From Methanocaldococcus jannaschii DSM 2661 (lineage in GTDB: Archaea > AGJL01 > Methanococci > Methanococcales > Methanocaldococcaceae): a DNA stretch of 32,000 nt. Where the stretch lies: contig NC_000909.1 in the NCBI RefSeq assembly GCF_000091665.1, positions 90,001-122,000 of the forward strand. The letters are read 5' to 3'. Shown here piece after piece: positions 2,902 to 27,852 of the stretch (position 1 is the first letter of the stretch; every line of letters begins with the position of its first letter). Under the pieces are notes generated by a model, which worked only from the letters and a program-made list of their open reading frames with translations, searched no databases and had not been told where the DNA came from. The translations under genes were made by a program, and so were the position numbers.

Positions 2902-3297
2902 TTACTCAAAAATCTCAATTGCTTTAAATGGACAGGCTTTTAAACAGTTTTTACAGCCGACACAGTCCTCTTCTTTGAATACTACATTATAATCCTCATC
3001 CATATAAATTACATTAATAGGGCATTGGGTTATGCAACAGCCACAATGCACACACTTCTCCAAATCCCTTTTTATAACTTTAGAGATTTCCTCAACTTCT
3101 CCAAATTTTGATAGATAATTTAAAGCTTTCTCTATAGTTTCTTTACTACCAAACAATTCCAATATCAAAAATGCCTCCTGTGGCTCTACCTTAGCTTTTA
3201 ATATGTTTATCTTAACTCCTGTATTTAATATAGTATCGGAAATAACTGGCTTGTTTATATGCTCTGAATCTGTCCAGTAATACACTCTCTTTCTCAT
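2902..3297 (-). CDS. NIL-domain / 2x[4Fe-4S] ferredoxin protein, partner of the DUF39-CBS homocysteine biosynthesis protein
   Basis: 131 aa with two CxxCxxCxxxCP motifs ([24 protein letters not shown]) after an N-terminal NIL-like domain. ATGA start/stop overlap with the upstream gene. Confidence 0.85.
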
Positions 3298-4823
3298 TTT
3301 TTCCCTCCGAATAATCTTGAGATATCTTCAGATGTTACAATGCCCACAACTCTTCTGTAGTCATCAACCACTGGAACACCAGAAATGTTATATTTACTCA
3401 TTTTTATCGCTACATGGTCAACGGGTTCATCTTCATGAGCAGTTATTACATTTCTTGTCATAATCTCTTCAATTGTCTTTTTGTTTTGAGCAAGAGCTTT
3501 AGCTATATCCCACGATGTAATTATTCCCACTAACTTCCCATGTTCATCAACTATAGGAAGATGGTTTATATTATGCTTTATCAAAATCTTAGCAGCTTCC
3601 ATAATGGATATATTGCTATGAGCAGTTATTGGTGGTTTGCTTAAAATATCCTTAACTAATGTTATTGGTGACTTCATTGGCTTGTTTTCAGCTCTTCCTA
3701 AAGTATCAACCCTCTCAGTTAGTAAAAACTTCCCATCCAAAATCCACTGTTTGAGGGTTTCAGCAACCTCTCTTGCCATCTTATAACTTGAAACAGAACC
3801 AGTTTTTACGGTTTTTTCAACATCTTTCCCATCTATATTTACATTTAATGTTATTTTTCCACTTCTTAACACTTTATAGTTTGTTTTTGCTATTAATGGT
3901 CTATCCCTCCTTGGAAATCCATAATCATAGATTGGCACTTCAATATCTTCATCTCTAATAGCACATCTCTCAGCTATCTTTTCATTTAAAACTGGGATTG
4001 GGATGCCTATACCAACATACAACGTGCTTCCATACCTTGGCATTGTAGCAGCCCTTATAAATTTAGGATTCATCTGTTTTAAATCTCCTTTAACCATTAA
4101 TGTTCCAAATGGTGGGTTATGCTGTGTACCCTCACCAATTACATATCCAATTCCTCCTCCTAAGAAAATCCTTGTTCCAATACCTATGGTATTAAATGAT
4201 TTTGTTTCTGGGTTATAATCATTCTGTAAAGGATTTAACTGTCCAGCGCCTGAATAATGAACGTTGTTATATTCAGGAAGTAGAATGCCCATGTAGGTGT
4301 ATATTTTCTCCTCCCTACTGTTTGTTGCTGCAGCATAAGTTTGATAGCAATTTCTTGGATTAACCATAATTGCCTGATTAACATCATCTAACGTTATTCT
4401 AACATTAACCTCCTTCCTTGGATAGCAGTCAGTTGTATATCCCTCAGCATAAAGCTCAACTTCCTTTCCTCTAACTAAATCCTCTATAACATGAGCTCCT
4501 CCGTAATCAATATCTACATCTGGGTCTTCGTTCGGTTGTGCAGCTCCTATATAAGCATCAACAGCAGCTAAACCTCCATAAGCTTCAACATTGTTTAAAT
4601 AAATCCTTAACATCTTTATTGGCGGGTCTGAATGTCCAAAGTTTATAAATACTCCAGATGAGCACATAGCTCCAAATGTTCCTGTTGTAACAACATCAAC
4701 ATAATCAGCCGCTCTTTTAGCTCCTTCTTCCTCAACTATTTTTATCATCTCTTCCGCTGTTACAACAACAGCCTCTCCTTTTTTAATCTTTTCATTAATC
4801 TCTTTGATTGTTTTCATAATCAT
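3294..4823 (-). CDS. DUF39 (COG1900) + tandem CBS domain protein (L-aspartate semialdehyde sulfurtransferase-type homocysteine biosynthesis)
   Basis: 509 aa. Long N-terminal DUF39-like region followed by a C-terminal CBS pair ([24 protein letters not shown]; [24 protein letters not shown]). I recall this as the MJ0100-type protein. Confidence 0.9.
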
Positions 4824-4839
4824 AACCTCTACAAATTTT

Positions 4840-4942
4840 TATAGTGTTTTTCAAATGTTTTACGGTATAAGGTATTTATAAAAGCCCTATAGGCTTTTAT
4901 ATAAGTGCCTTAGAAATTTTATTAAGTTTGAAAAACACTATA
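4840..4942. repeat. Nested palindrome cassette: perfect 16-bp outer arms plus a 10-bp inner TATA palindrome
   Basis: Outer arms tatagtgtttttcaaa (4840-4855) and tttgaaaaacactata (4927-4942) are perfect. Inner arms tataaaagcc (4877-4886) and ggcttttata (4892-4901) are perfect. The cassette ends 17 nt upstream of the ATG at 4823. Confidence 0.65.
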
Positions 4943-5049
4943 GGTAATCCCTAAAATATATAAAAAGAGATATAAAAATTTTAAACTTCTAAAGTATTTG
5001 ATTCTATTATATCTGAGATTAAAATTGCTAAATAGAAAATAAAAAAGAA

Positions 5050-6405
5050 TTATCCTTCCTTAAACATTAATTGTCTCATTATTTGTCCTAAAGGTCCTCC
5101 AATTCTCAACATCTTACCCTTTCTCAACTTATCTATGGCATTTTTTGTTGTTTCATAATATCTTAAAACCTCCCTAACATCATTTTCTGTAGTTCCAGAA
5201 CCTCTTGCAATCCTTCTGATTCTTGAAGCTTTAATAATCTTTGGATTTTCTCTCTCTTCCTTAGTCATTGAACTTATAATTACCTTATATTTTTTTATCT
5301 TTGCCTCAGTTAAATGAGAAAGCTCTTTAGGCATAGCTCCTCCAAATCCAGGAATCATACTTAGGATTTTTTTCATTGAACCCATGTTTTCAATTGCTTC
5401 TAATTGAGTCATCAACTCATTTAAAGTAAATTTCCCTCTCATTATTGCATCTATGCTTTCTTCTGTTTTCTCATCAACCATGTCTTCAGCTTTTTCTAAT
5501 AGGCTCTCTAAATCTCCCATCCCTAACAGTCGAGATATAAATTTTTTAGGGTCGAATGGTTCTAAATCATCAATCCCCTCCCCAATTCCAATGAATTTTA
5601 TAGGTGCTTTTGTCTCAGCAACCGCACTTAACGCCCCTCCTCCTTTAGCAGAACCATCTAACTTAGTTACTATTATACTCCCAATCTCTCCAACTGCCTC
5701 TTTAAACGCTTTAGCTTGAATTCCTGCTTGTTGCCCAATAGTCCCATCTATAACCAATATGATTTCATCTGGATTTGTTATCTCTTTAATTTGCTTCATC
5801 TCTTCCAATAAACCTTTTTCCTCTTTATGTCTTCCAGCAGTATCTATAATTAAAACATCTGCCTTCTTAAATTTCTCCATCCCCTCTTTAACAATATCTA
5901 CTGGTGATTTTGTTCTTGTCTCATCCCCATATATTGGCACGTGGATTTTTTCAGCTAACTGCTTTAACTGCTCATAAGCCGCTGGTCTGTAGGTATCAGC
6001 TGCGATTAAAGCAGGTTTTAACCCTCTTTTTTGGATATACCTTGCTAATTTTGCTGCAGTTGTTGTTTTTCCTGAACCTTGAATACCAACTAATAAGATA
6101 ACATTTTGTTTTTTTGGATTTAACTCTAATTTTTTTGCCTCTTCTCCCAATAATTTGACTAATTCTTCATAGACAATCTTTATGATATGCTCTTTCTTTG
6201 ATAAACCCTTTGGTGTCTTTTCCTCTAAAGCTCTCCTCTCTATTTCTTTACTCATCTTTAAAACCAATTTTACATTAACATCTGCCTGTATTAAAGCCCT
6301 TTGAATATCTTTTATAACTTCTTTTATTAATTTTTTATCAACAAAGGCAGCAGCTTTTAGTTTGTTTAGGGCTTTGTTTAAATTTTCTCCTAATTTATCG
6401 AGCAT
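5050..6405 (-). CDS. srp54: Signal recognition particle protein SRP54
   Basis: 451 aa. N domain, G domain with [15 protein letters not shown] and TKLD motifs, and a Met-rich C-terminal M domain. Confidence 0.97.
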
Positions 6406-6498
6406 GATATCACCAAATTAAACTATACAACACTTAATAAAATATTATATTTCTTCAATTAAAAATTTTATTGTTTTCAGAAATTTTAGAATTATACT

Positions 6499-7053
6499 TT
6501 AAACAGTTCCCCATCTTTTAAATAAGCTATTATCTATTCCCAAAATATCTAAAACTCTTCCAACAACAAAATTAATTATATCATTTACATTTTTTGGTTT
6601 ATTATAGAAAGCAGGAATTGGAGGCATTACTATAGCTCCCAAATTTGAAAGTTTTAACATATTTTCTAAATGTATGCTATTAAATGGCATCTCTCTTGGC
6701 ATAATTATCAATTTCCTTCTTTCTTTTAAAGCGATATCACAAACTCTAACTATTAAATTTGCTGAGTATCCGTTGGCTATGGCTGATAAAGTTTTCATTG
6801 AGCAAGGCACAACTACAACAGCATCAAATTTGTTTGAACCAGATGCAAGAGGTGAGAAAAAGTCATCATTCTCATAATAGTCCGTCGCTAATTTTTTTAT
6901 TTCTTTCCAGTCAATATCAAGCTCTTCTTTAATTATTTTTTTAGCTGAATTTGAGATAATTAGATTAACTTCAGCTCTATCTTTCAATACCTCTAACAAT
7001 CTTTTTGCATAAATGACTCCACTCGCCCCGGTTATACAAACAATAATTTTCAT
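6499..7053 (-). CDS. ubiX: Flavin prenyltransferase UbiX family
   Basis: 184 aa. MKIIVCITGASG N-terminus and overall flavoprotein (UbiX/Pad1) pattern. Confidence 0.9.
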   Translation of the reverse strand: MKIIVCITGASGVIYAKRLLEVLKDRAEVNLIISNSAKKIIKEELDIDWKEIKKLATDYYENDDFFSPLASGSNKFDAVVVVPCSMKTLSAIANGYSANLIVRVCDIALKERRKLIIMPREMPFNSIHLENMLKLSNLGAIVMPPIPAFYNKPKNVNDIINFVVGRVLDILGIDNSLFKRWGTV

Positions 7054-7160
7054 AAATTCACCATTAAAAACTGTTAAGTTAAGATTTAAAAAATAAATAC
7101 TATTTAAAAATAGTTAATCCATAAATCTAAAAAAATAAATATAACAACCTAAAATAAAAT

Positions 7161-7185
7161 AATAAAATGGTGCCGAGGGAGGGAT
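7161..7185 (-). pseudogene. Displaced copy of the tRNA-Met 3' end (T-loop to CCA plus trailer)
   Basis: tggtgccgagggagggat at 7168-7185 is identical to 7426-7443, the 3' terminus of the intact tRNA-Met. The aataaaa trailer is also shared. Confidence 0.8.
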
Positions 7186-7425
7186 ACAAACGAAACTTTT
7201 AGAAAAAGTTAAACAAAATCTTTCAGATTTTGTAGCCCGAAGCTAACGCTTCGGTTAAATGAAAACTAAAAGAGTTTTCATAGCTGGAAAGCGTAGCTTT
7301 CCATTTCATCAAAATAGGATGCATTGCCTCGCTACGCTCGGCAATGCCTCTTAAAAGAAAGTGGGGTTGCCTCTGGCAACCCTGCTCTGAGTATCCCAAT
7401 AGGGCGAAGCCCTATGGAATAAAAA
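7186..7425. repeat. Modular GC-hairpin chain element, copy B (about 7 hairpins)
   Basis: Hairpins ccgaagc/gcttcgg 7237-7254, gaaaact/agttttc 7261-7279, tggaaagc/gctttcca 7284-7302, gcattgcc/ggcaatgc ~7321-7347, gggttgcc/ggcaaccc 7363-7383, and terminal cccaatagggc-gaa-gccctatgg 7395-7417. Confidence 0.8.
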
Positions 7426-7537
7426 TGGTGCCGAGGGAGGGATTCGAACCCTCGACCTCCCGGTTTCCCAGGACCCAGGCGTAAAGCCTGGGATATCCGT
7501 ATGAGCCGGGCGCTATAACCAGCTAAGCCACCTCGGC
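7426..7537 (-). tRNA. tRNA-Met (CAU, elongator) with a ~35-nt intron after position 37; CCA encoded
   Basis: Minus strand reads GCCGAGG...GCGCCCGGCTCATA[CGGATATCCCAGGCTTTACGCCTGGGTCCTGGGAA]ACCGGGAGGTCGAGGGTTCGAATCCCTCCCTCGGCACCA. Acceptor, anticodon and T stems all pair. The intron carries a 7-bp hairpin. Confidence 0.93.
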
Positions 7538-7628
7538 ACGCAACATCATTATAATTACAAACCCATATATATACTTTTCGGCGTAAGTTTTATATAGGGA
7601 GGTTTATAAATAAAATTTGCCTTTAAGG
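7538..7628. promoter_or_regulatory. Divergent tRNA promoter region
   Basis: tttataaata at 7603-7612 lies ~20 nt before tRNA-Leu. On the minus strand aaaagtatatatat (7563-7576) lies ~30 nt before tRNA-Met. Confidence 0.5.
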
Positions 7629-7716
7629 GCGGGGGTCGCCAAGCCAGGTCAAAGGCGCCAGATTGAGGGTCTGGTCCCGTAGGGGTTCGCGGGTTCAAAT
7701 CCCGTCCCCCGCACCA
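7629..7716 (+). tRNA. tRNA-Leu (GAG), long variable arm, CCA encoded
   Basis: GCGGGGGTCGCCAAGCCAGGTCAAAGGCGCCAGATTGAGGGTCTGGTCCCGTAGGGGTTCGCGGGTTCAAATCCCGTCCCCCGCACCA. The cloverleaf pairs correctly. The anticodon loop is TTGAGGG. Confidence 0.93.
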
Positions 7717-7724
7717 AATATTTG

Positions 7725-7802
7725 ATAGCGGGTTAGAAGAGGCATTGCTTCCATTAGGAAGCAATGTATCCTGGGTATAGCAATAGGGCGAAGCCCTATG
7801 CT
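7725..7802. repeat. Modular GC-hairpin element, short copy E (2 hairpins)
   Basis: gcattgcttcc-atta-ggaagcaatgt at 7742-7767 and caatagggcgaagccctatg at 7781-7800. The second hairpin has the same apex as copy B. Confidence 0.7.
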
Positions 7803-7830
7803 TTAAACCCCATCCCCCGCACCAAATATT
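7803..7830 (+). pseudogene. Displaced copy of the tRNA-Leu 3' end (T-loop to CCA plus trailer)
   Basis: aaaccccatcccccgcaccaaatattt versus genuine aaatcccgtcccccgcaccaaatattt (7698-7724), ~25/27 identical. Confidence 0.8.
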
Positions 7831-7957
7831 TTGAGCTTTTTTTAATTTGGACAATATTAGTAACTGCAAAATCTTCTTTTAGAATAATAATAACCCAATA
7901 TAACAAGATTGTTTAAATTGTTTTTAATTAATGTAAATATTTGAATGTTGTGGGATT

Positions 7958-9259
7958 ATGGTGTGCTTAGATTTATCACAATACAGGATGATAACCGACG
8001 TTAAAAACAAAGATAACACATTAATCCTTGAAATAAACAAAATTTATGAGATTGAAGTTGAAATTCCTTATGAAGAGGTTGAAATTGATGGCTCAATAAT
8101 AAAAATTAATGCTCATCCAAAAAGAGCTGAAAATATAAAGGTTGGGATTTTAAACTTAATTTCTTATAGCATAGCTAACAATTTAAAGAGCAAAATAACA
8201 AAGAGAAAAACTATATATATAAATGAGCCAATTCCTCTAATAGGGCATACTGCCTTTGGTTTAATTGAAAGAGGTAGAAATATAATCCAAGTTAGAGGGC
8301 ATTGTGGCTGTAATTTAAACTGCATATTTTGCTCAGTGGATGAAGGAGAGTTTTCTAAAACAAGAAAAAATGATTACTATGTTGATTTAGAGTATTTAAT
8401 TGAGAATTACAAAAAGATTGTTGATTTTAAGGAAAATAAGTTTATTGAGGCACATTTAGATGGGCAGGGAGAGCCAAGCCTTTATTATCCATTAGTTGAT
8501 TTAGTTCAAGAACTGGCAGAGATAAATAAAAAAGGTAATGGTATCGTTTCCATGCAAACAAACGGGACAGTTTTAAATTATAAACTAATAGATGAGTTAG
8601 AAGAGGCCGGGTTGCATAGGATAAACTTATCTATCAATGCCTTAGATGAAAAAATGGCTAAAATGCTCTCTGGTAGGAGAGATTACAATATTAAGAAGAT
8701 TTTAGATATTGCTGAATATATAAAAAACTCTAAGATTCATCTATTGATTGCTCCCCTTTTATTGCCAAACATAAACGATGAGGAATTTAAGAGAGTTATT
8801 GAGTATGCTGTTGATTTAGAGCAGAAAAATCCTCAAAACATTATTAATCCATTAACCGGGAAAAAAGACCCCATTTTAGGTTGCCAACTTTGTAGGGTTT
8901 ATCAATTAGGTAGAAGACCTAAAAAAATGAAGGTTTGGGATTTTGAGAAGTTTTATTATTTGTTAGGGAAATATGAGTTAGAATATAAGAAGAAAGGTAT
9001 AGAGGTTAAGCTCATAACTTCACCAAAGGATTTTGGAACGCATAAGAGGAAAAGATTGCCTTATCCATTCAAAGTTGGTGAGGTAACAAAAGTAAAAGTT
9101 GTTTTAGATGGAAGAGTTAAAGGAGAAGTTTTGGGAGTTGCTAAGGATAGGGTAATTCAGATAATTAACTGCAATAATGAACAAAATCTAATAGGGAAGA
9201 CAGTTAAAGTGAGAATTTTGAGAAATAAGGATAATATAATAGTTGCAGAATTGGTTTAA
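7958..9259 (+). CDS. Radical SAM protein with C-terminal TRAM-like beta-barrel (COG2100-type, function unknown)
   Basis: 433 aa. CNLNCIFC (CxxxCxxC) cluster motif and a GEPS-type SAM-binding stretch. The C-terminal GEVTKVKVV...GKTVKVRILR resembles TRAM domains. Confidence 0.85.
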   Translation: MVCLDLSQYRMITDVKNKDNTLILEINKIYEIEVEIPYEEVEIDGSIIKINAHPKRAENIKVGILNLISYSIANNLKSKITKRKTIYINEPIPLIGHTAFGLIERGRNIIQVRGHCGCNLNCIFCSVDEGEFSKTRKNDYYVDLEYLIENYKKIVDFKENKFIEAHLDGQGEPSLYYPLVDLVQELAEINKKGNGIVSMQTNGTVLNYKLIDELEEAGLHRINLSINALDEKMAKMLSGRRDYNIKKILDIAEYIKNSKIHLLIAPLLLPNINDEEFKRVIEYAVDLEQKNPQNIINPLTGKKDPILGCQLCRVYQLGRRPKKMKVWDFEKFYYLLGKYELEYKKKGIEVKLITSPKDFGTHKRKRLPYPFKVGEVTKVKVVLDGRVKGEVLGVAKDRVIQIINCNNEQNLIGKTVKVRILRNKDNIIVAELV

Positions 9260-18690: not shown

Positions 18691-20157
18691 TTAAGCTGTT
18701 TGATTCTTCTCCTTCCATTCTTTTAATATCTTATCCCAGTTATTTCTTAAGAAGTCACCAACTTGAGATGAATCTCTTGTTCCAACAACACATGTCCAGC
18801 CGGTTTTGTCTTCAATATCTCCTCTTGTAGAAGCAGCTAAAGCTGGCAATATTATTATCCTGTGGCTAACTTTATCAGCGATTCCTGTCTCTTCAATTAA
18901 TTTTTTAGCATTTTCTCCATTATACTGCCCTCCTGCAACTGAAACATCAACAGCCTTTCCTCCAGTGTCCATAACCAATAGCCAGCAGGTAACGTTATCT
19001 TTCTCAAAGTCTCCTGTAACTGTGTAGAATGTTAATGAGAAGTTTGTTGTTAATATAACTGGGCTGTTTTCGTCTGGATTGCCAATTGGGTATAAGCCTG
19101 GCTCAACTGCCTGTGGCTTTCTTGGGTCTGTATAGATACACTGTCTCAATGTTAGGACTGGCATTAATTCCCATATATCCATTCCATGCATAATTAAAGC
19201 ATCTGCATATCTGTTCATCAATGTATTGGCTATTGTAGCCTCAAACATCTTAGCAACAACCTCTTTATCCTCAAAAAATCCAGAGATTGGGCATTCATTT
19301 TTTAAAGCATAATAATAAGCGTTAATTGGTAAATTTAATATTGGAAATCCTAAGTATTTATCTTCCTTCTCAATAGCACTCCTCCTAATCATTACATTCA
19401 AATCTAATGTTTCAGCGATATTTTCTGGGTATGTGTGAGGTTCTAAAACTAAATCTTCAATACCATTAGCTAAGCACTTTGCAGCCATGTTTTTTAAATC
19501 TTTAACATTATTTGATGATAAAACCAAAACAACGTCCTTTTTAACTTCTTTAATAACCTTTATGAAATCATTTAACGTTTCTTTTGTTGCGGCATAGACC
19601 ATTGGCTTTGATTTAACAACTTTTAAAGCTTCCTTTATAACCTCCGGATTTAATGAGGCAATGCAAATAGGCATCTTTGTTTCTTTTTCAACAATTTCTA
19701 TAGCTTTTTTAAACTTCTCAACATCTCCAGATGCATTTCTTATAACAATAAAGTCTAATTTTAACTTTTCTCCAGTTCTTTCAAATACAAAGTTCTCTAT
19801 TTCCTTAGCTCTATTTTTAATTTCTTCTTCACTTAACTCGTCGCTAATATCAACACCAATTGGTGTAGGGTTAAAGAATGATAACTGATATCTATACATT
19901 ACCTCGTCTCCACCCATAACCGCCTTTTTTTCTTCGTTCCCAAACCAAACTTCTTTTACTGGTGGAGAGATAAGCTCTATAATCTTCTTTTTATTTTTCT
20001 CAAATTTTGGGGTGTTTAATATAGGACATTGGTCAATTGTTGCCTCTTTCTCTAACAGTTTTGTAGCAAATGCCATGCATGACGGATAACCGCATTTTTT
20101 ACAGTTTGTTTTTGGCAGTAATTTGTAAATATCCATTGCACTAATCTTTTTTGGCAT
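18691..20157 (-). CDS. cdhE: Acetyl-CoA decarbonylase/synthase gamma subunit (corrinoid/Fe-S protein large subunit)
   Basis: 488 aa. N-terminal 4Fe-4S motif LPKTNCKKCGYPSCMAFATKLLEKEATIDQCP, then a TIM-barrel and corrinoid-binding C-terminal domain. Lies directly downstream of cdhD. Confidence 0.93.
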   Translation of the reverse strand: MPKKISAMDIYKLLPKTNCKKCGYPSCMAFATKLLEKEATIDQCPILNTPKFEKNKKKIIELISPPVKEVWFGNEEKKAVMGGDEVMYRYQLSFFNPTPIGVDISDELSEEEIKNRAKEIENFVFERTGEKLKLDFIVIRNASGDVEKFKKAIEIVEKETKMPICIASLNPEVIKEALKVVKSKPMVYAATKETLNDFIKVIKEVKKDVVLVLSSNNVKDLKNMAAKCLANGIEDLVLEPHTYPENIAETLDLNVMIRRSAIEKEDKYLGFPILNLPINAYYYALKNECPISGFFEDKEVVAKMFEATIANTLMNRYADALIMHGMDIWELMPVLTLRQCIYTDPRKPQAVEPGLYPIGNPDENSPVILTTNFSLTFYTVTGDFEKDNVTCWLLVMDTGGKAVDVSVAGGQYNGENAKKLIEETGIADKVSHRIIILPALAASTRGDIEDKTGWTCVVGTRDSSQVGDFLRNNWDKILKEWKEKNQTA

Positions 20158-21873: not shown

Positions 21874-22785
21874 ATGGAGAAAGTGTATTCAAAATTTGGA
21901 AGAATTGAAGATTTAAAAGAAATTATTTCTGGATTGGTTAATTTTACAGGAATTATTAGAATAGACAATGCCCTTCTCTTTTACATTGACTCAAAACTTA
22001 TCTCATCAAAGTTTAATGGTAGAGAAAAAAGTTTAGAAGAGATATTTTCACAAATTCCAGACGAGTTTTTAATAGAGATTTATCAAGGAAATGAAAAGGA
22101 AGTAAAATCTGCTCTTATAAATTTTAAACCAGAGGAATCTATTGTTGAAATTTCTAAGCTAAGCCTGGTTTTTGAGAATGAGGTTATTTTGAATTCTTAC
22201 AACGATGTATATAAATATTTAACTTACATAAATAAAGTTATTTTTATGCCAAAAAGATTTAAAAATGAAAAAGGGATTGTTGTTTATAAAAACAAGAGAG
22301 AGGTTTTTGCAGTATATTTTGGTAGAAAAACTTTATTTGGGAAGAAAGCAATTAGCAAACTAAAAACAACATTTGCCGTTAGTGAAATAATTGCAAAAAT
22401 TGAGAAAATATCCAATGAAGAATTAAATTCTTTAAAAAATCAATATCCTGAAGGCGTTTTATTGTTTGGAGATTCAATTAACGATGTTGTTAAGAAAATA
22501 ATATCTTCAAAAAAACCTATAATCTTAGAAAATGTTTCATTGATTGATGCTCTATCTTACGGAACATGTTTAATTAAGATTGAGGGTAGTGAAATTGGAT
22601 ATATTGTAGCTAAAGATGGAAAACCAGTATATGCATTTTTAAATGATTATGATGGAGAAAAAAGTTACAGATTGTTAAAGAGCATGTGTATTGTTGAAGA
22701 TGTTAAATACTCCATCTATAAGCTATCAAAAGAAGAGTATGACATGTTTAAAACATTTCAGGAAAACAAAATCCCATTATCTTAA
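21874..22785 (+). CDS. Hypothetical protein with three tandem ~55-aa modules
   Basis: 303 aa ORF starting 19 nt after tRNA-Sec. By eye, modules start [27 protein letters not shown] and [14 protein letters not shown]. No catalytic motif recognised. Confidence 0.6.
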
Positions 22786-23249
22786 TCCTTATCAATCATT
22801 TTTATAGCCATTTCATAGGCTTTCTTTAAATCTCCTGTCTCTAAGATACATTTTTCAGCAATATCTTTTGGAATGCCTTTTTTAACAAAAACTTCCACTG
22901 CCTCTTTAAAAAACTGGCTATTTCTTATAATTTCCTCAGCAAGCTGTTTTTTTAGCTCCATGTATTCATCTGGACTTATGTTGTTTTTAGCAAGCTCATA
23001 ATCCCTGTAAGGGCAGGGTTTTGTTATTTTACAACACCAAACTAAACTACCAAAGCATGTATTTTCTCCTAAACCAAGTTTTGTCCTCTTTCCAAATTCT
23101 TCCTTTATTCTTATAAACTCCTCTGGTGACATTTTCAATACAGCTAACGCTTTATGAATAGGACAGTATTTTATTGGAGGACAGCAAAAAGCTAAACCTC
23201 TCAAATCTCCTCCCCTACATATATGAGATGGAGCATTCTCCCAGCCCAT
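22782..23249 (-). CDS. Cys-rich protein with an internal duplication, unknown function
   Basis: 155 aa. Two copies of C-x(9-10)-CC-x5-CP followed by (M/I)SP(E/D)E(F/Y): [26 protein letters not shown] and [22 protein letters not shown]. Starts 4 nt after the arfB stop. Confidence 0.6.
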
Positions 23250-25214: not shown

Positions 25215-25697
25215 ATGAGTGAAGTGATAAAGGTTGTTGATGTAAAAATATTTCCACACAGATATTTGAAGGCAGAAACTACAGAGAAGGTATTAAATGA
25301 GATTTATGATTTGGATGGAATTGTTAGGGTTATAGTTCATGGACAACCCTTGCCAAAAACTGTTCCATTTGGTCCTGCAAGAGGATTGCCTGTAAATCAC
25401 CAAGATAGAAAAGTTATTAAGGTTAAAGGCGAAGAAATGGAATTGAGAGTTAAAGTTGGAGAGATAATTATAACAGTTGAAGGAGAAAAACTTGAAAAGA
25501 TAATGGATGGAATAGAAGAGATATGTAAAAGAAACTTCCCATTTGGATATGATATCTATGTAGGTGCATTTACTAAAATAAAGCCAACTGTAACTGATTA
25601 TATGAAGTATGGAGATATTAGCAGTATAGACCCAAGATTGATTGGCATGGTAGATGCATCAGCAAGATTAAAAGATTCTGTAAAGATGATAAAATAA
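25215..25697 (+). CDS. mrtD: Methyl-coenzyme M reductase operon protein D homolog (stand-alone McrD/MrtD)
   Basis: IFPHRYLKAETTEKVLNEIYDLDGIVRVIVHGQPLPKTVPFGPARGLPVNH matches my memory of the McrD family. ATG at 25215 is preceded by GAGGTGA (25203-25209). The track start at 25194 is less likely. Confidence 0.8.
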   Translation: MSEVIKVVDVKIFPHRYLKAETTEKVLNEIYDLDGIVRVIVHGQPLPKTVPFGPARGLPVNHQDRKVIKVKGEEMELRVKVGEIIITVEGEKLEKIMDGIEEICKRNFPFGYDIYVGAFTKIKPTVTDYMKYGDISSIDPRLIGMVDASARLKDSVKMIK

Positions 25698-25722
25698 ATA
25701 ATTAAAAAAATATTTTTTATTT

Positions 25723-26367
25723 TTAAAATACTTTCAAATCAATACCTTCTATATAAACTCTTTTTCCCTCAACTTGCACTACTACTCCAGAATGAACCTT
25801 CTGCATCATACAGTGTTTTGGGATAAATTTAACAGTTTTTCCAACCTCTGGAACTTTACCTTCTACAATTCCCTCAAATGCAACAACTATCGCTATACCA
25901 ACATCTTTATACTCTATTTTTTCCCCAGTTATCCTATGGCTCGGTCCCACTACATGGATTATATAAAAGCCATGATACTCATCGATTATTTTAGCAAAGT
26001 GTGGAATTGGACAACCTAAAGGTCTATATCTTATATAATCTCCAACTTTAAGCTCTTTTTTATCCATAATTAATAGTGTCTCTCTACAAGAACATTCATT
26101 TGGTAGAGGTTTTAATAGAAAATCTGCCTCATATCCATCAATAACTCCAATGTATTTTTCCTCTTTTTTAATTTTTCCTTTAATCTTTAAAATCTCTTTT
26201 AATTTTTCATAGTTTTCTTTAAATCTCTCCCTAAGCAAAAATGGGCAGTCCTCTAATTTTACATCTTTATTTAATAATGCCTCAGCAAATAAATCACATC
26301 TCTTATAACCACAAGCTCCACAATTGAATCCTGGAAGATATTTGGTAATTTCATTTACATCGACCAT
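25723..26367 (-). CDS. Fe-S protein: N-terminal CdhE/RnfB-type 4Fe-4S domain plus uncharacterised C-terminal domain
   Basis: [32 protein letters not shown] has the same Cx2Cx4Cx16CP spacing as the CdhE N-terminus in this window. I prefer the ATG at 26367, one nt after the upstream TAA and preceded by GGGGAG, over the track start at 26397. Confidence 0.7.
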
Positions 26368-26368
26368 T

Positions 26369-27070
26369 TTACTCCCCTTCATATTCCATGAATCCATCTA
26401 TTCTTCTTAAAATTCCTCTGTGATACTTTTTACTAACTCTTGTCTCTCCAACACATAAGGTGCAAATACACAATGGAGCGTTGTGTCTTAGCTCTTCATT
26501 TTCTAAATCTTTAATATCTTTGCTTTCAATAATCTCCTTGGCTATTTCAACACATCCCTGCCCTGTAAGTCCATTAACTTCATAAATTCTACAATTTGGG
26601 TTCATCTCTAAAACTCTTTCTCTAAAAACTTCTCTTTCAGCTTGAGAGATGATATCTCCTTTGGTTATAACTACAATATCTGCACTTGTTAAGAACGGCC
26701 CTACTTTTCTTGGCGTGTTCGGCCCTGAAGTGGCATCAATGACACAAATTCCCAAACTGTTTTTTGTGTAAGGGGCACATCTATGGCAGAGACCAGCAGT
26801 TTCTATTAGTAAGATATCTCCCTTATCCTTAGCCCAATCAACCATTTCTTCAAAGTTGTATATTGCAAAGTGGTCTGGGCACATATCCTTACTTAAACCA
26901 ACTAAAACAGGGATGCCCAATTTTTTATACCTGACATCATCGTCAGTATATAAACAGTCAATTTTTACAACTACTGGCTTATATCCTTCATTAATTAAGG
27001 TTCTTATTGTGTGAATTAATACTGAAGTCTTTCCAGCTCCAGGGGTTCCTGCAACTATTGCCACTTTCAT
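26369..27070 (-). CDS. G3E-family P-loop GTPase (HypB/UreG/CobW-like metallochaperone)
   Basis: GTPGAGKT Walker A, ETAG (the ExxG signature of G3E), TKGD specificity motif. Cys/His clusters CPDH, GLCHRC and CICTLC. ATGA overlap with the upstream ABC gene. Confidence 0.8.
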
Positions 27071-27852
27071 CCTTTCACCATTAGGCTTATATCTTCATGA
27101 GTCAATCTCTCTCCAAACCTAATCTTTTCTCTTAAAGAGAGTAGCCAGTTATCAACCTCATTTATTTTTCTTGAAATTTCCTTCTCTTCTTCAGTAGTTT
27201 CTATAATCTTCTGCATTCCTCCGTTTCTCATCACTATCCTTCTATCAGTCATTAAAGCCAAGACAGGGTCGTGAGTTATAACTAAAACAATCTTTCCATA
27301 TCCTGCCAATAACTCTAAAGCCTCATGCTTCTTTATTCCAGCGTTTTCAATCTCATCTATTAAAACTATGGGAGAATCGCTTATTACAGCTACATCAGCA
27401 ACCATTAAACTTCTTGACTGCCCTCCACTTAGGATTGTTAAGTTGTAGTCTTTCTTTATTGGCTCTCCTGTTAATCTATTTGCTAATTCTATGACTTCAT
27501 CAACAATATTTTCTCTATAAACTCCCCTACTCTTCGCATGCATTAAAATAAACTCCTCTACAGTCATGTCTGCTAAAAAATTCATGTTTTGAGATAGTTG
27601 GGCAATTCTTCTCTTTTTTGGGTCTCTTCTCATCTCTATTGGAGGAACTTCTCCATTAACTAAAATTCTTCTCTTGGAGATGGTATCTCCTTGAGCTAAC
27701 TGCTCTATATCGCTGATTAAATTTGATTTCCCACTTCCTGTTGGCCCAACAACACCGACAATCTCTCCTCTTTTTATTGTAACCTCCCTTACAGGTTCTG
27801 GATTGCCGTTCTTGTCATAACCACCGATAATTGTTATCTCCTTAATTTCCAT
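27067..27852 (-). CDS. ABC-type ATPase, single NBD, no permease partner in the operon
   Basis: GPTGSGKS Walker A, LSGGQ signature, IVLIDE Walker B, ITHD H-loop. It is the first gene of a three-gene overlapping operon. Confidence 0.9.

Follow-up and report, generated by a model that had tools for sequence, protein, structure and literature searches.

An ABC-type ATPase, a G3E GTPase, and a COG2000-type Fe-S protein form a conserved gene trio that recurs beside sulfonate biosynthesis genes in archaea and bacteria

The three-gene locus and its products

Within a stretch of 32,000 nucleotides from Methanocaldococcus jannaschii DSM 2661 (NC_000909.1, positions 90,001 to 122,000; hereafter "the window", to which all positions refer unless another locus is named), we analyzed three consecutive genes, A, B, and C, encoding a soluble ABC-type ATPase, a G3E GTPase, and a COG2000-type Fe-S protein. 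This trio recurs beside genes of sulfonate biosynthesis in other archaea and in bacteria. We know of no characterized system in which a soluble ABC ATPase and a G3E GTPase occur together with an Fe-S protein whose main domain is without known relatives. The genes and the parts of them discussed below are as follows:

27852..27067, minus strand: gene A, ABC-type ATPase, 261 aa
27070..26369, minus strand: gene B, G3E GTPase, 233 aa
26870..26881, minus strand: CPDH motif of B (C64-P-D-H67), aligned with the CP-H stretch of UreG (4hi0, 5xkt); C64 and H67 invariant in 95/95 homologs
26367..25723, minus strand: gene C, COG2000-type Fe-S protein, 214 aa counted from the ATG at 26367
26239..26337, minus strand: N-terminal [4Fe-4S] domain of C, residues 11–43; PF04060, E 6.6e-14; cysteines C16, C19, C24, and C41
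25726..26145, minus strand: C-terminal all-beta domain of C, residues ~75–214; strands at residues 83–210 in the AlphaFold2 model

A and B overlap in an ATGA (27070..27067), and B and C are joined by a TAA-A-ATG (26371..26365) that is preceded by a Shine–Dalgarno-like GGGGAG run. Further in-frame ATGs lie upstream of the start of C at 26397 and 26382. An initial annotation of this DNA, made from the sequence alone, had described the gene coordinates, both junctions, a number of motifs, and a gap of 25 nt (25698..25722) between the stop of C and the stop of a convergent McrD-family gene, all of which we found as described. A scan for sigma-70 promoters and terminators, which is unsuited to archaea, gave matches no better than those in shuffled sequence.

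Gene A encodes a single PF00005 domain (ABC_tran, E 6.5e-15) with a C-terminal extension of ~50 aa. Walker A, Q-loop, LSGGQ, Walker B, and H-loop are all in place; a comparison of 90 homologs showed conservation of the Walker A, LSGGQ, Walker B, and H-loop regions, with H194 in the H-loop invariant. The nearest solved structures are the nucleotide-binding domains of MacB and BceA (E ~1e-11 to 1e-12), and the best scores against NCBIfam transporter models were 45–59 bits, compared to cut-offs of 250–970. No ABC permease or binding-protein gene flanks A in the window, and none is conserved beside it in ~100 related loci, so that A does not show the linkage of a transporter subunit. This agrees with the initial annotation, which had called A a single-domain ATPase without a membrane partner and had named adjacency to such genes as a finding that would speak against its proposal. 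An apparent A–B fusion at one locus (L081) proved to be an ORF-calling artefact in DNA of 70% GC (ORF, open reading frame); A and B are separate genes there.

A could nevertheless be a transport ATPase with its membrane partner encoded at another site, the trio energizing or regulating the uptake or export of sulfur oxyanions. The complete set of ABC motifs would suit such a role, as would a PiT-family permease encoded after C on its strand in Saccharicrinis and a YeiH-family transporter that precedes C at locus L111. PiT and YeiH are, however, secondary carriers that use no ABC ATPase. Considering also the missing permease and binding-protein genes, the scores far below every transporter-ATPase cut-off, and the fact that A is instead coupled translationally to genes for a GTPase and an Fe-S protein, we regard a transport function as very unlikely.

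The product of gene B belongs to the cobW/HypB/UreG family (PF02492, E 4.4e-14; 52.9 bits vs. a cut-off of 20.7) and carries the P-loop GxxGxGKT, the ExxG, and the (N/T)KxD-type motif (TKGD) of G3E GTPases. Its nearest solved structure is UreG (4hi0, E 1e-6). Because it scored below both equivalog cut-offs (HypB TIGR00073, 51 bits vs. 121; UreG TIGR00101, 36 bits vs. 204), B is neither HypB nor UreG proper but a distant relative of both, and no hyp or ure genes are conserved near it in related loci. Residues C39, C64, H67, C95, C98, C109, C203, C206, and H217 are invariant in 95 homologs, which upholds the earlier description of B as a G3E GTPase with metal-ligand clusters. The CPDH motif is a candidate dimer-interface metal site, and C64, H67, and C95 are candidate metal ligands. 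B therefore resembles UreG and HypB, its best family matches, in the three nucleotide-binding motifs and in a Cys-Pro-(x)-His that aligns with the CPH of UreG. It differs from them in its scores, in six further invariant Cys/His residues, in the lack of urease or hydrogenase genes nearby, and in its constant pairing with an ABC ATPase and a COG2000 protein.

Gene C contains the motif Cx2Cx4Cx16CP, and its four cluster cysteines are invariant. A profile of the C family matched the large subunit of the corrinoid iron–sulfur protein (CFeSP; 4djd_C, E 3e-8) and RnfB (7zc6_B), and the N-terminus is 40% identical over 55 aa to that of the CdhE encoded in the window (E 2e-11). The similarity to CdhE pointed out in the initial annotation is therefore real and comprises the [4Fe-4S] domain only: C has the PF04060 domain but no match to PF03599, and thus does not qualify as a CFeSP large subunit (CdhE/AcsC). 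While the PF04060 domain with its motif is common to C, CdhE/AcsC, and RnfB, C lacks the CdhD-like TIM-barrel and corrinoid-binding part of CdhE/AcsC, and the rest of the protein is an unclassified beta domain. In the AlphaFold2 model (mean pLDDT, the predicted local distance difference test score, 91.3), the cluster domain at the N-terminus is helical and is joined by a linker to an all-beta region. No Pfam match was obtained for the C-terminal ~140 aa even at E ≤ 10, and a Foldseek search of this domain against the PDB yielded no match at E ≤ 0.001. R115, C119, P120, H123, C186, and H192 of the C-terminal domain are invariant even in relatives that are 28–37% identical, and its invariant Cys and His residues may form a Cys2His2 metal site. 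An exhaustive search of 1.84 billion representative proteins returned 236 representatives at E ≤ 1e-3, of which 15 reached E ≤ 1e-30; among the weaker relatives, many are fragments or match in the Fe-S domain only. With so few relatives among so many proteins, the C family is small.

Conservation, loss, and surroundings of the trio

A scan for gene C in one genome per species and in metagenomes, extended by added look-ups, resulted in 121 loci including the window (numbered with the prefix L). The locus closest to the window is that of Methanocaldococcus sp. 16A (L001), with 92–98% protein identity. All three genes are present in 99 loci, and in 98 of these they lie on one strand in the order A-B-C; conservation of this order was among the checks that the initial annotation had suggested. 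The A–B junction has a median of −4 nt, the B–C gap is at most ~30 nt in 58 loci, and A and B are 61–70% identical between M. jannaschii and the bacterial versions. These data show that A, B, and C form one coupled, co-inherited unit.

The sole differing order is found at L111 (2477–7228), where the genes for a YeiH-family "putative sulfate export transporter", C, a nucleoside diphosphate (NDP)-sugar epimerase/dehydratase, A, B, and an amidohydrolase follow one another; this could be a sulfo-sugar context. A reading of the epimerase/dehydratase as UDP-sulfoquinovose synthase, which would be a third sulfite-using enzyme, is not supported: the Rossmann region alone matches (36 bits vs. a cut-off of 575). 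In one archaeal lineage (L085, L087, L089, L091, L098, and L099), C has all invariant residues and neither A nor B occurs within up to 8 kb; C may act alone there, or its partners may be encoded elsewhere. Neighbors in this lineage include CcmE, geranylfarnesyl diphosphate synthase, and a RIO kinase, and are uninformative for function. In L037 (16.6 kb of a 2.36-Mb metagenome contig), a ComA-A-B-C block occurs twice in tandem with a shortened CofE-like gene in between, either as a real duplication or as an assembly artefact.

A natural knockout at this locus is found in Methanocaldococcus sp. 28A (L002, CP187540.1, ~4900–8570). An insertion sequence remnant replaces A and B together with the first 25 codons of C, with transposase-like sequence in an ORF at 4945–5583 and in a second remnant at ~7700–8000. 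In the leftover ORF of C, the invariant HSG has become HFR and invariant residues are lost, and the genes for McrD and aIF2-alpha beside it are intact.

The initial annotation had proposed an NTP-driven (NTP, nucleoside triphosphate), redox-active machine that inserts or reductively activates the nickel centers of methyl-coenzyme M reductase (MCR) or acetyl-CoA decarbonylase/synthase (ACDS). Two features of the window outside the unit are relevant to this proposal:

25215..25697, plus strand: stand-alone McrD-family gene, convergent neighbor of the trio; MCR_D, E 9.2e-59; TIGR03260, 232 bits vs. a cut-off of 100
18691..20157: CdhE-type gene; PF04060 and CdhD fold (PF03599)

In its favor are the short distance between the end of the trio and the McrD-family gene, the position of the CdhE/CdhD genes ~6 kb from the trio, and the CdhE-type [4Fe-4S] domain of C. 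McrD, however, adjoins the trio in only 3 of the 121 loci (the window, L001, and L002), all of them from Methanocaldococcus and convergent, so that proximity to mcrD is not conserved and linkage to the MCR system is lacking. No cdh gene is conserved beside the trio elsewhere, and strain 28A lost the trio at this locus and kept McrD. Furthermore, the trio is not restricted to methanogens and is present in cultured Bacteroidota and in Spirochaetota, both without MCR. Occurrence outside methanogens had itself been named as contrary evidence. The distribution of the trio thus largely refutes MCR and ACDS as targets, which we consider extremely unlikely. The more general idea of an NTP-driven redox metallocenter machine stays reasonable.

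Sulfonate biosynthesis genes beside the trio

Coenzyme M (CoM) is indispensable for methane formation and anaerobic alkane oxidation, and both archaeal pathways of its synthesis begin with the addition of sulfite. Naming neighbors by scores above curated cut-offs, we found a CoM or cysteate gene at 67 of the 121 loci (the phosphosulfolactate synthase ComA at 37, cysteate synthase at 22, and ComD, ComE, and methanogenesis marker 16, Mmp16, at 11 each). When loci were grouped into lineages at 70% identity of C (n = 24), 15 lineages had such a gene within a few genes of the trio; the chance of such linkage is <1e-16 by a rough binomial estimate, in which the lineages are not fully independent. 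Linkage as it would be seen for an accessory component of a CoM or other sulfonate gene cluster was thereby observed across lineages.

The arrangement varies. In Methanobacteriaceae, Methanothermococcus, and Methanococcus vannielii, the trio directly follows ComA (TIGR03849, E 1.8e-106) on the same strand. At loci of the Methanomethylovorans type, the trio is flanked directly by cysteate synthase (TIGR03844, E 1e-178) on the upstream side and by ComD/ComE on the downstream side. In a clade with 36% identity in C, A-B-C, an Mmp16-like gene, a PALP-domain gene, and a gene for a thiamine pyrophosphate (TPP) enzyme form one co-directional operon, and in a distant member the trio is convergent with Mmp16 (TIGR03287, E 2e-158). 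Mmp16 also immediately precedes the trio on its strand in L055 and L070/L071 and immediately follows it in L116, and it is a convergent or adjacent neighbor in L114/L115, L062, L078, L086, and L106. Since two unrelated entry enzymes, ComA and cysteate synthase, occupy differing positions relative to the trio, we argue for repeated recruitment.

The trio was also detected among Marinilabiliales, in cultured Labilibaculum and Plebeiibacterium and in chromosomes of Saccharicrinis, and in metagenome-assembled genomes of Spirochaetota (one contig of 3.2 Mb). Cysteate acyltransferases of sulfonolipid synthesis are members of the Kbl/serine-palmitoyltransferase-like family. At the Spirochaetota locus L016, the genes after A-B-C encode cysteate synthase and then a Kbl/serine-palmitoyltransferase-like acyltransferase; at L077, a metagenomic locus of bacterial type and unassigned taxonomy, they encode cysteate synthase, an aspartate aminotransferase, and a PanE-like reductase. 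Both are apparently clusters for sulfonates other than CoM. In Saccharicrinis, the trio stands between a two-component regulator pair and the genes for the PiT-family permease and an EFR1 ferredoxin. Mariniphaga and a Saccharicrinis species each have an annotated cysteate synthase. Other neighbors of the trio in Bacteroidota are uninformative.

The proximity to Mmp16 (ComF, the COG1900 CoM synthase) raises the question whether the trio serves thiolation or general sulfur trafficking in CoM synthesis, e.g., by providing electrons or metal to Mmp16. Mmp16 is a neighbor of the trio at the loci given for it above, has been shown to be the CoM synthase, and is annotated as a metalloprotein, and reductive thiolation requires electrons (PMC12068725). 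Yet the partner of the trio in Methanobacteriaceae and Methanococcales is ComA, the enzyme of the first step, and not Mmp16. The bacterial loci, moreover, pair the trio with cysteate synthase and, besides it, either an acyltransferase or an aminotransferase with a reductase; they have no Mmp16, and thiolation is unneeded there. We therefore judge a role in thiolation unlikely.

Several archaeal loci have additional neighbors. In ~30 loci of Methanobacteriaceae (e.g., L005, 8720–11015), a conserved series of genes for a CofE-like protein, transcription factor E, and an HD-domain protein lies 3' of C, the CofE-like protein matching F420 glutamyl ligase only in part. In Methanococcus vannielii SB (L109, 7722–8939), a LarC-family "Ni_insertion" gene (PF01969) is convergent and immediately downstream of C, and Methanothermococcus loci L003, L004, and L030 have genes of similar size in this place; a link of the LarC-family neighbor to the metal handled by B is possible. 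In L114 and L115 (3268–5472), where the trio is convergent with Mmp16, a gene for a CopA-like heavy-metal P-type ATPase with an HMA domain is divergent from A.

Such neighbors would be accounted for if the trio were a metallochaperone or maturation system for a client metalloenzyme unrelated to sulfonates, or served metal homeostasis, and if the sulfonate genes reflected co-regulation or inherited operon structure only. The UreG/HypB-like character of B with its invariant Cys/His ligands is consistent with this, as are the LarC-like gene in M. vannielii and the CopA-like ATPase in L114/L115. These metal-related neighbors are, however, confined to single lineages, whereas two non-homologous sulfite-adding enzymes recur beside the trio in varied positions and in both domains of life. 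A function apart from sulfonates is thus rather improbable, and the trio very probably belongs functionally to sulfonate biosynthesis, i.e., to CoM synthesis in archaea and to the synthesis of cysteate-derived sulfonates in bacteria.

A putative role in sulfite supply

Sulfite addition by ComA or cysteate synthase is the only step common to the archaeal and bacterial pathways. We therefore favor, tentatively and with somewhat less than even confidence, a role as an NTP-driven redox metalloprotein module that makes sulfite or hands it over for the sulfite-dependent entry step. A more far-reaching and more doubtful possibility is that the trio represents a new sulfite-generating enzyme system of strict anaerobes, independent of APS (adenosine 5'-phosphosulfate) and siroheme, driven by ATP and GTP, and built around an Fe-S protein with a new Cys2His2 metal domain.

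In this model, C would be the redox component, with electrons entering via the CFeSP/RnfB-type [4Fe-4S] domain and passing to a metal at the Cys2His2 site of the beta domain. At this metal, a sulfur compound might be converted to sulfite, or sulfite might be held, for ComA or cysteate synthase. B, as a UreG/HypB-like GTPase, would load or maintain the metal of C, and A would contribute ATP-driven conformational work, e.g., in gating electron transfer, in assembly, or in hand-off. What we infer in this model is that the proteins form a complex, which metal is bound, whether sulfate, thiosulfate, or reduced sulfur is the substrate, and that sulfite is produced; the division of labor among A, B, and C is suggested by their domain content.

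Two known systems offer partial analogies. SufC of the SufBC2D complex is a soluble ABC ATPase that drives an Fe-S assembly scaffold and is not a transporter. Like SufC, A is a permease-less ABC ATPase encoded with metal- or cluster-binding partners, which may indicate a possible mode of action only; unlike for SufC, there are no SufB/SufD homologs, and the searches run gave no specific similarity to SufC. In the pathway of CysDN ATP sulfurylase and APS/PAPS reductase (PAPS, 3'-phosphoadenosine 5'-phosphosulfate), GTPase-coupled sulfate activation is followed by Fe-S-dependent reduction to sulfite. The trio would be comparable in combining NTP (including GTP) hydrolysis with an Fe-S redox protein ahead of sulfite use, yet it has no sequence or fold relation to these enzymes, and A and B belong to the P-loop hydrolases, not to the adenylyltransferases.

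A number of observations weigh against sulfite supply. A, B, and C are unlike any known sulfite-forming enzyme, and no biochemical or genetic data on them were found in the literature, in agreement with the earlier statement that no experimental description was known. The archaeal linkage alone cannot tell sulfite supply from other CoM steps, and Mmp16 is the direct neighbor in a few lineages (L055, L070/L071, and L114–L116). In the window, no CoM gene is present within the 32 kb, and at the Marinilabiliales and most Spirochaetota loci no sulfonate gene lies within 8 kb. The trio has a far narrower distribution than cysteate synthase, and it is missing from the CoM operon of M. acetivorans; the module is therefore not a general requirement. 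As strain 28A lost the trio at its locus, the module is either dispensable there or supplied elsewhere. Lastly, the PiT permease was downgraded as evidence of sulfate uptake: it scored 231 bits against a sulfate-permease cut-off of 400, and Methanothermococcus has the PiT permease together with a PhoU-like DUF47 protein, as is usual for phosphate transporters.

The intracellular source of sulfite for CoM synthesis has been described as unclear for sulfide-grown methanogens, to which sulfite is toxic (PMC6286981). A sulfite-generating trio, if confirmed, would answer where the sulfonate sulfur of CoM originates. Standing beside both unrelated sulfite-adding enzymes, and beside cysteate synthase in bacteria as well, the trio is a concrete candidate for the sulfite step. 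The comA-A-B-C arrangement is present in Methanococcus, which makes the hypothesis directly testable in genetically tractable methanogens.

The archaeal colocalization is already on record: genes for an ATPase, a Ni2+-binding GTPase, and a COG2000 Fe-S protein were noted to colocalize with CoM genes, "role unknown" (PMC12068725, Figure 2; PLoS Genet 2025). These are the same three gene types, in a paper that covers MCR-encoding archaea only and proposes no function. It was the only relevant paper found for COG2000, and literature searches with the locus tags MJ0119-0121, MTH1671-1673, and MTBMA_c02540-60 found no mention. New in our analysis are the bacterial members and the cysteate contexts outside CoM synthesis that point to the sulfite step, as well as the distant clade with the same linkage, the invariant ligand sets, the orphan C-terminal fold, and the natural deletion in strain 28A.

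Three other ORFs of the window, all on the minus strand, deserve mention. A 155-aa Cys-rich ORF at 22782–23249 has two CC...CP stretches (CCPPIKYCP and CCKITKPCP) and no Pfam match, and adjoins a creatininase-family gene. Approximately 21 kb from the trio, a 509-aa ORF at 3294–4823 is 35% identical to Mmp16 over 310 residues and is thus a COG1900/HcyBio relative, probably the homocysteine-type sulfurtransferase. It is accompanied by a 131-aa ORF at 2902–3297.

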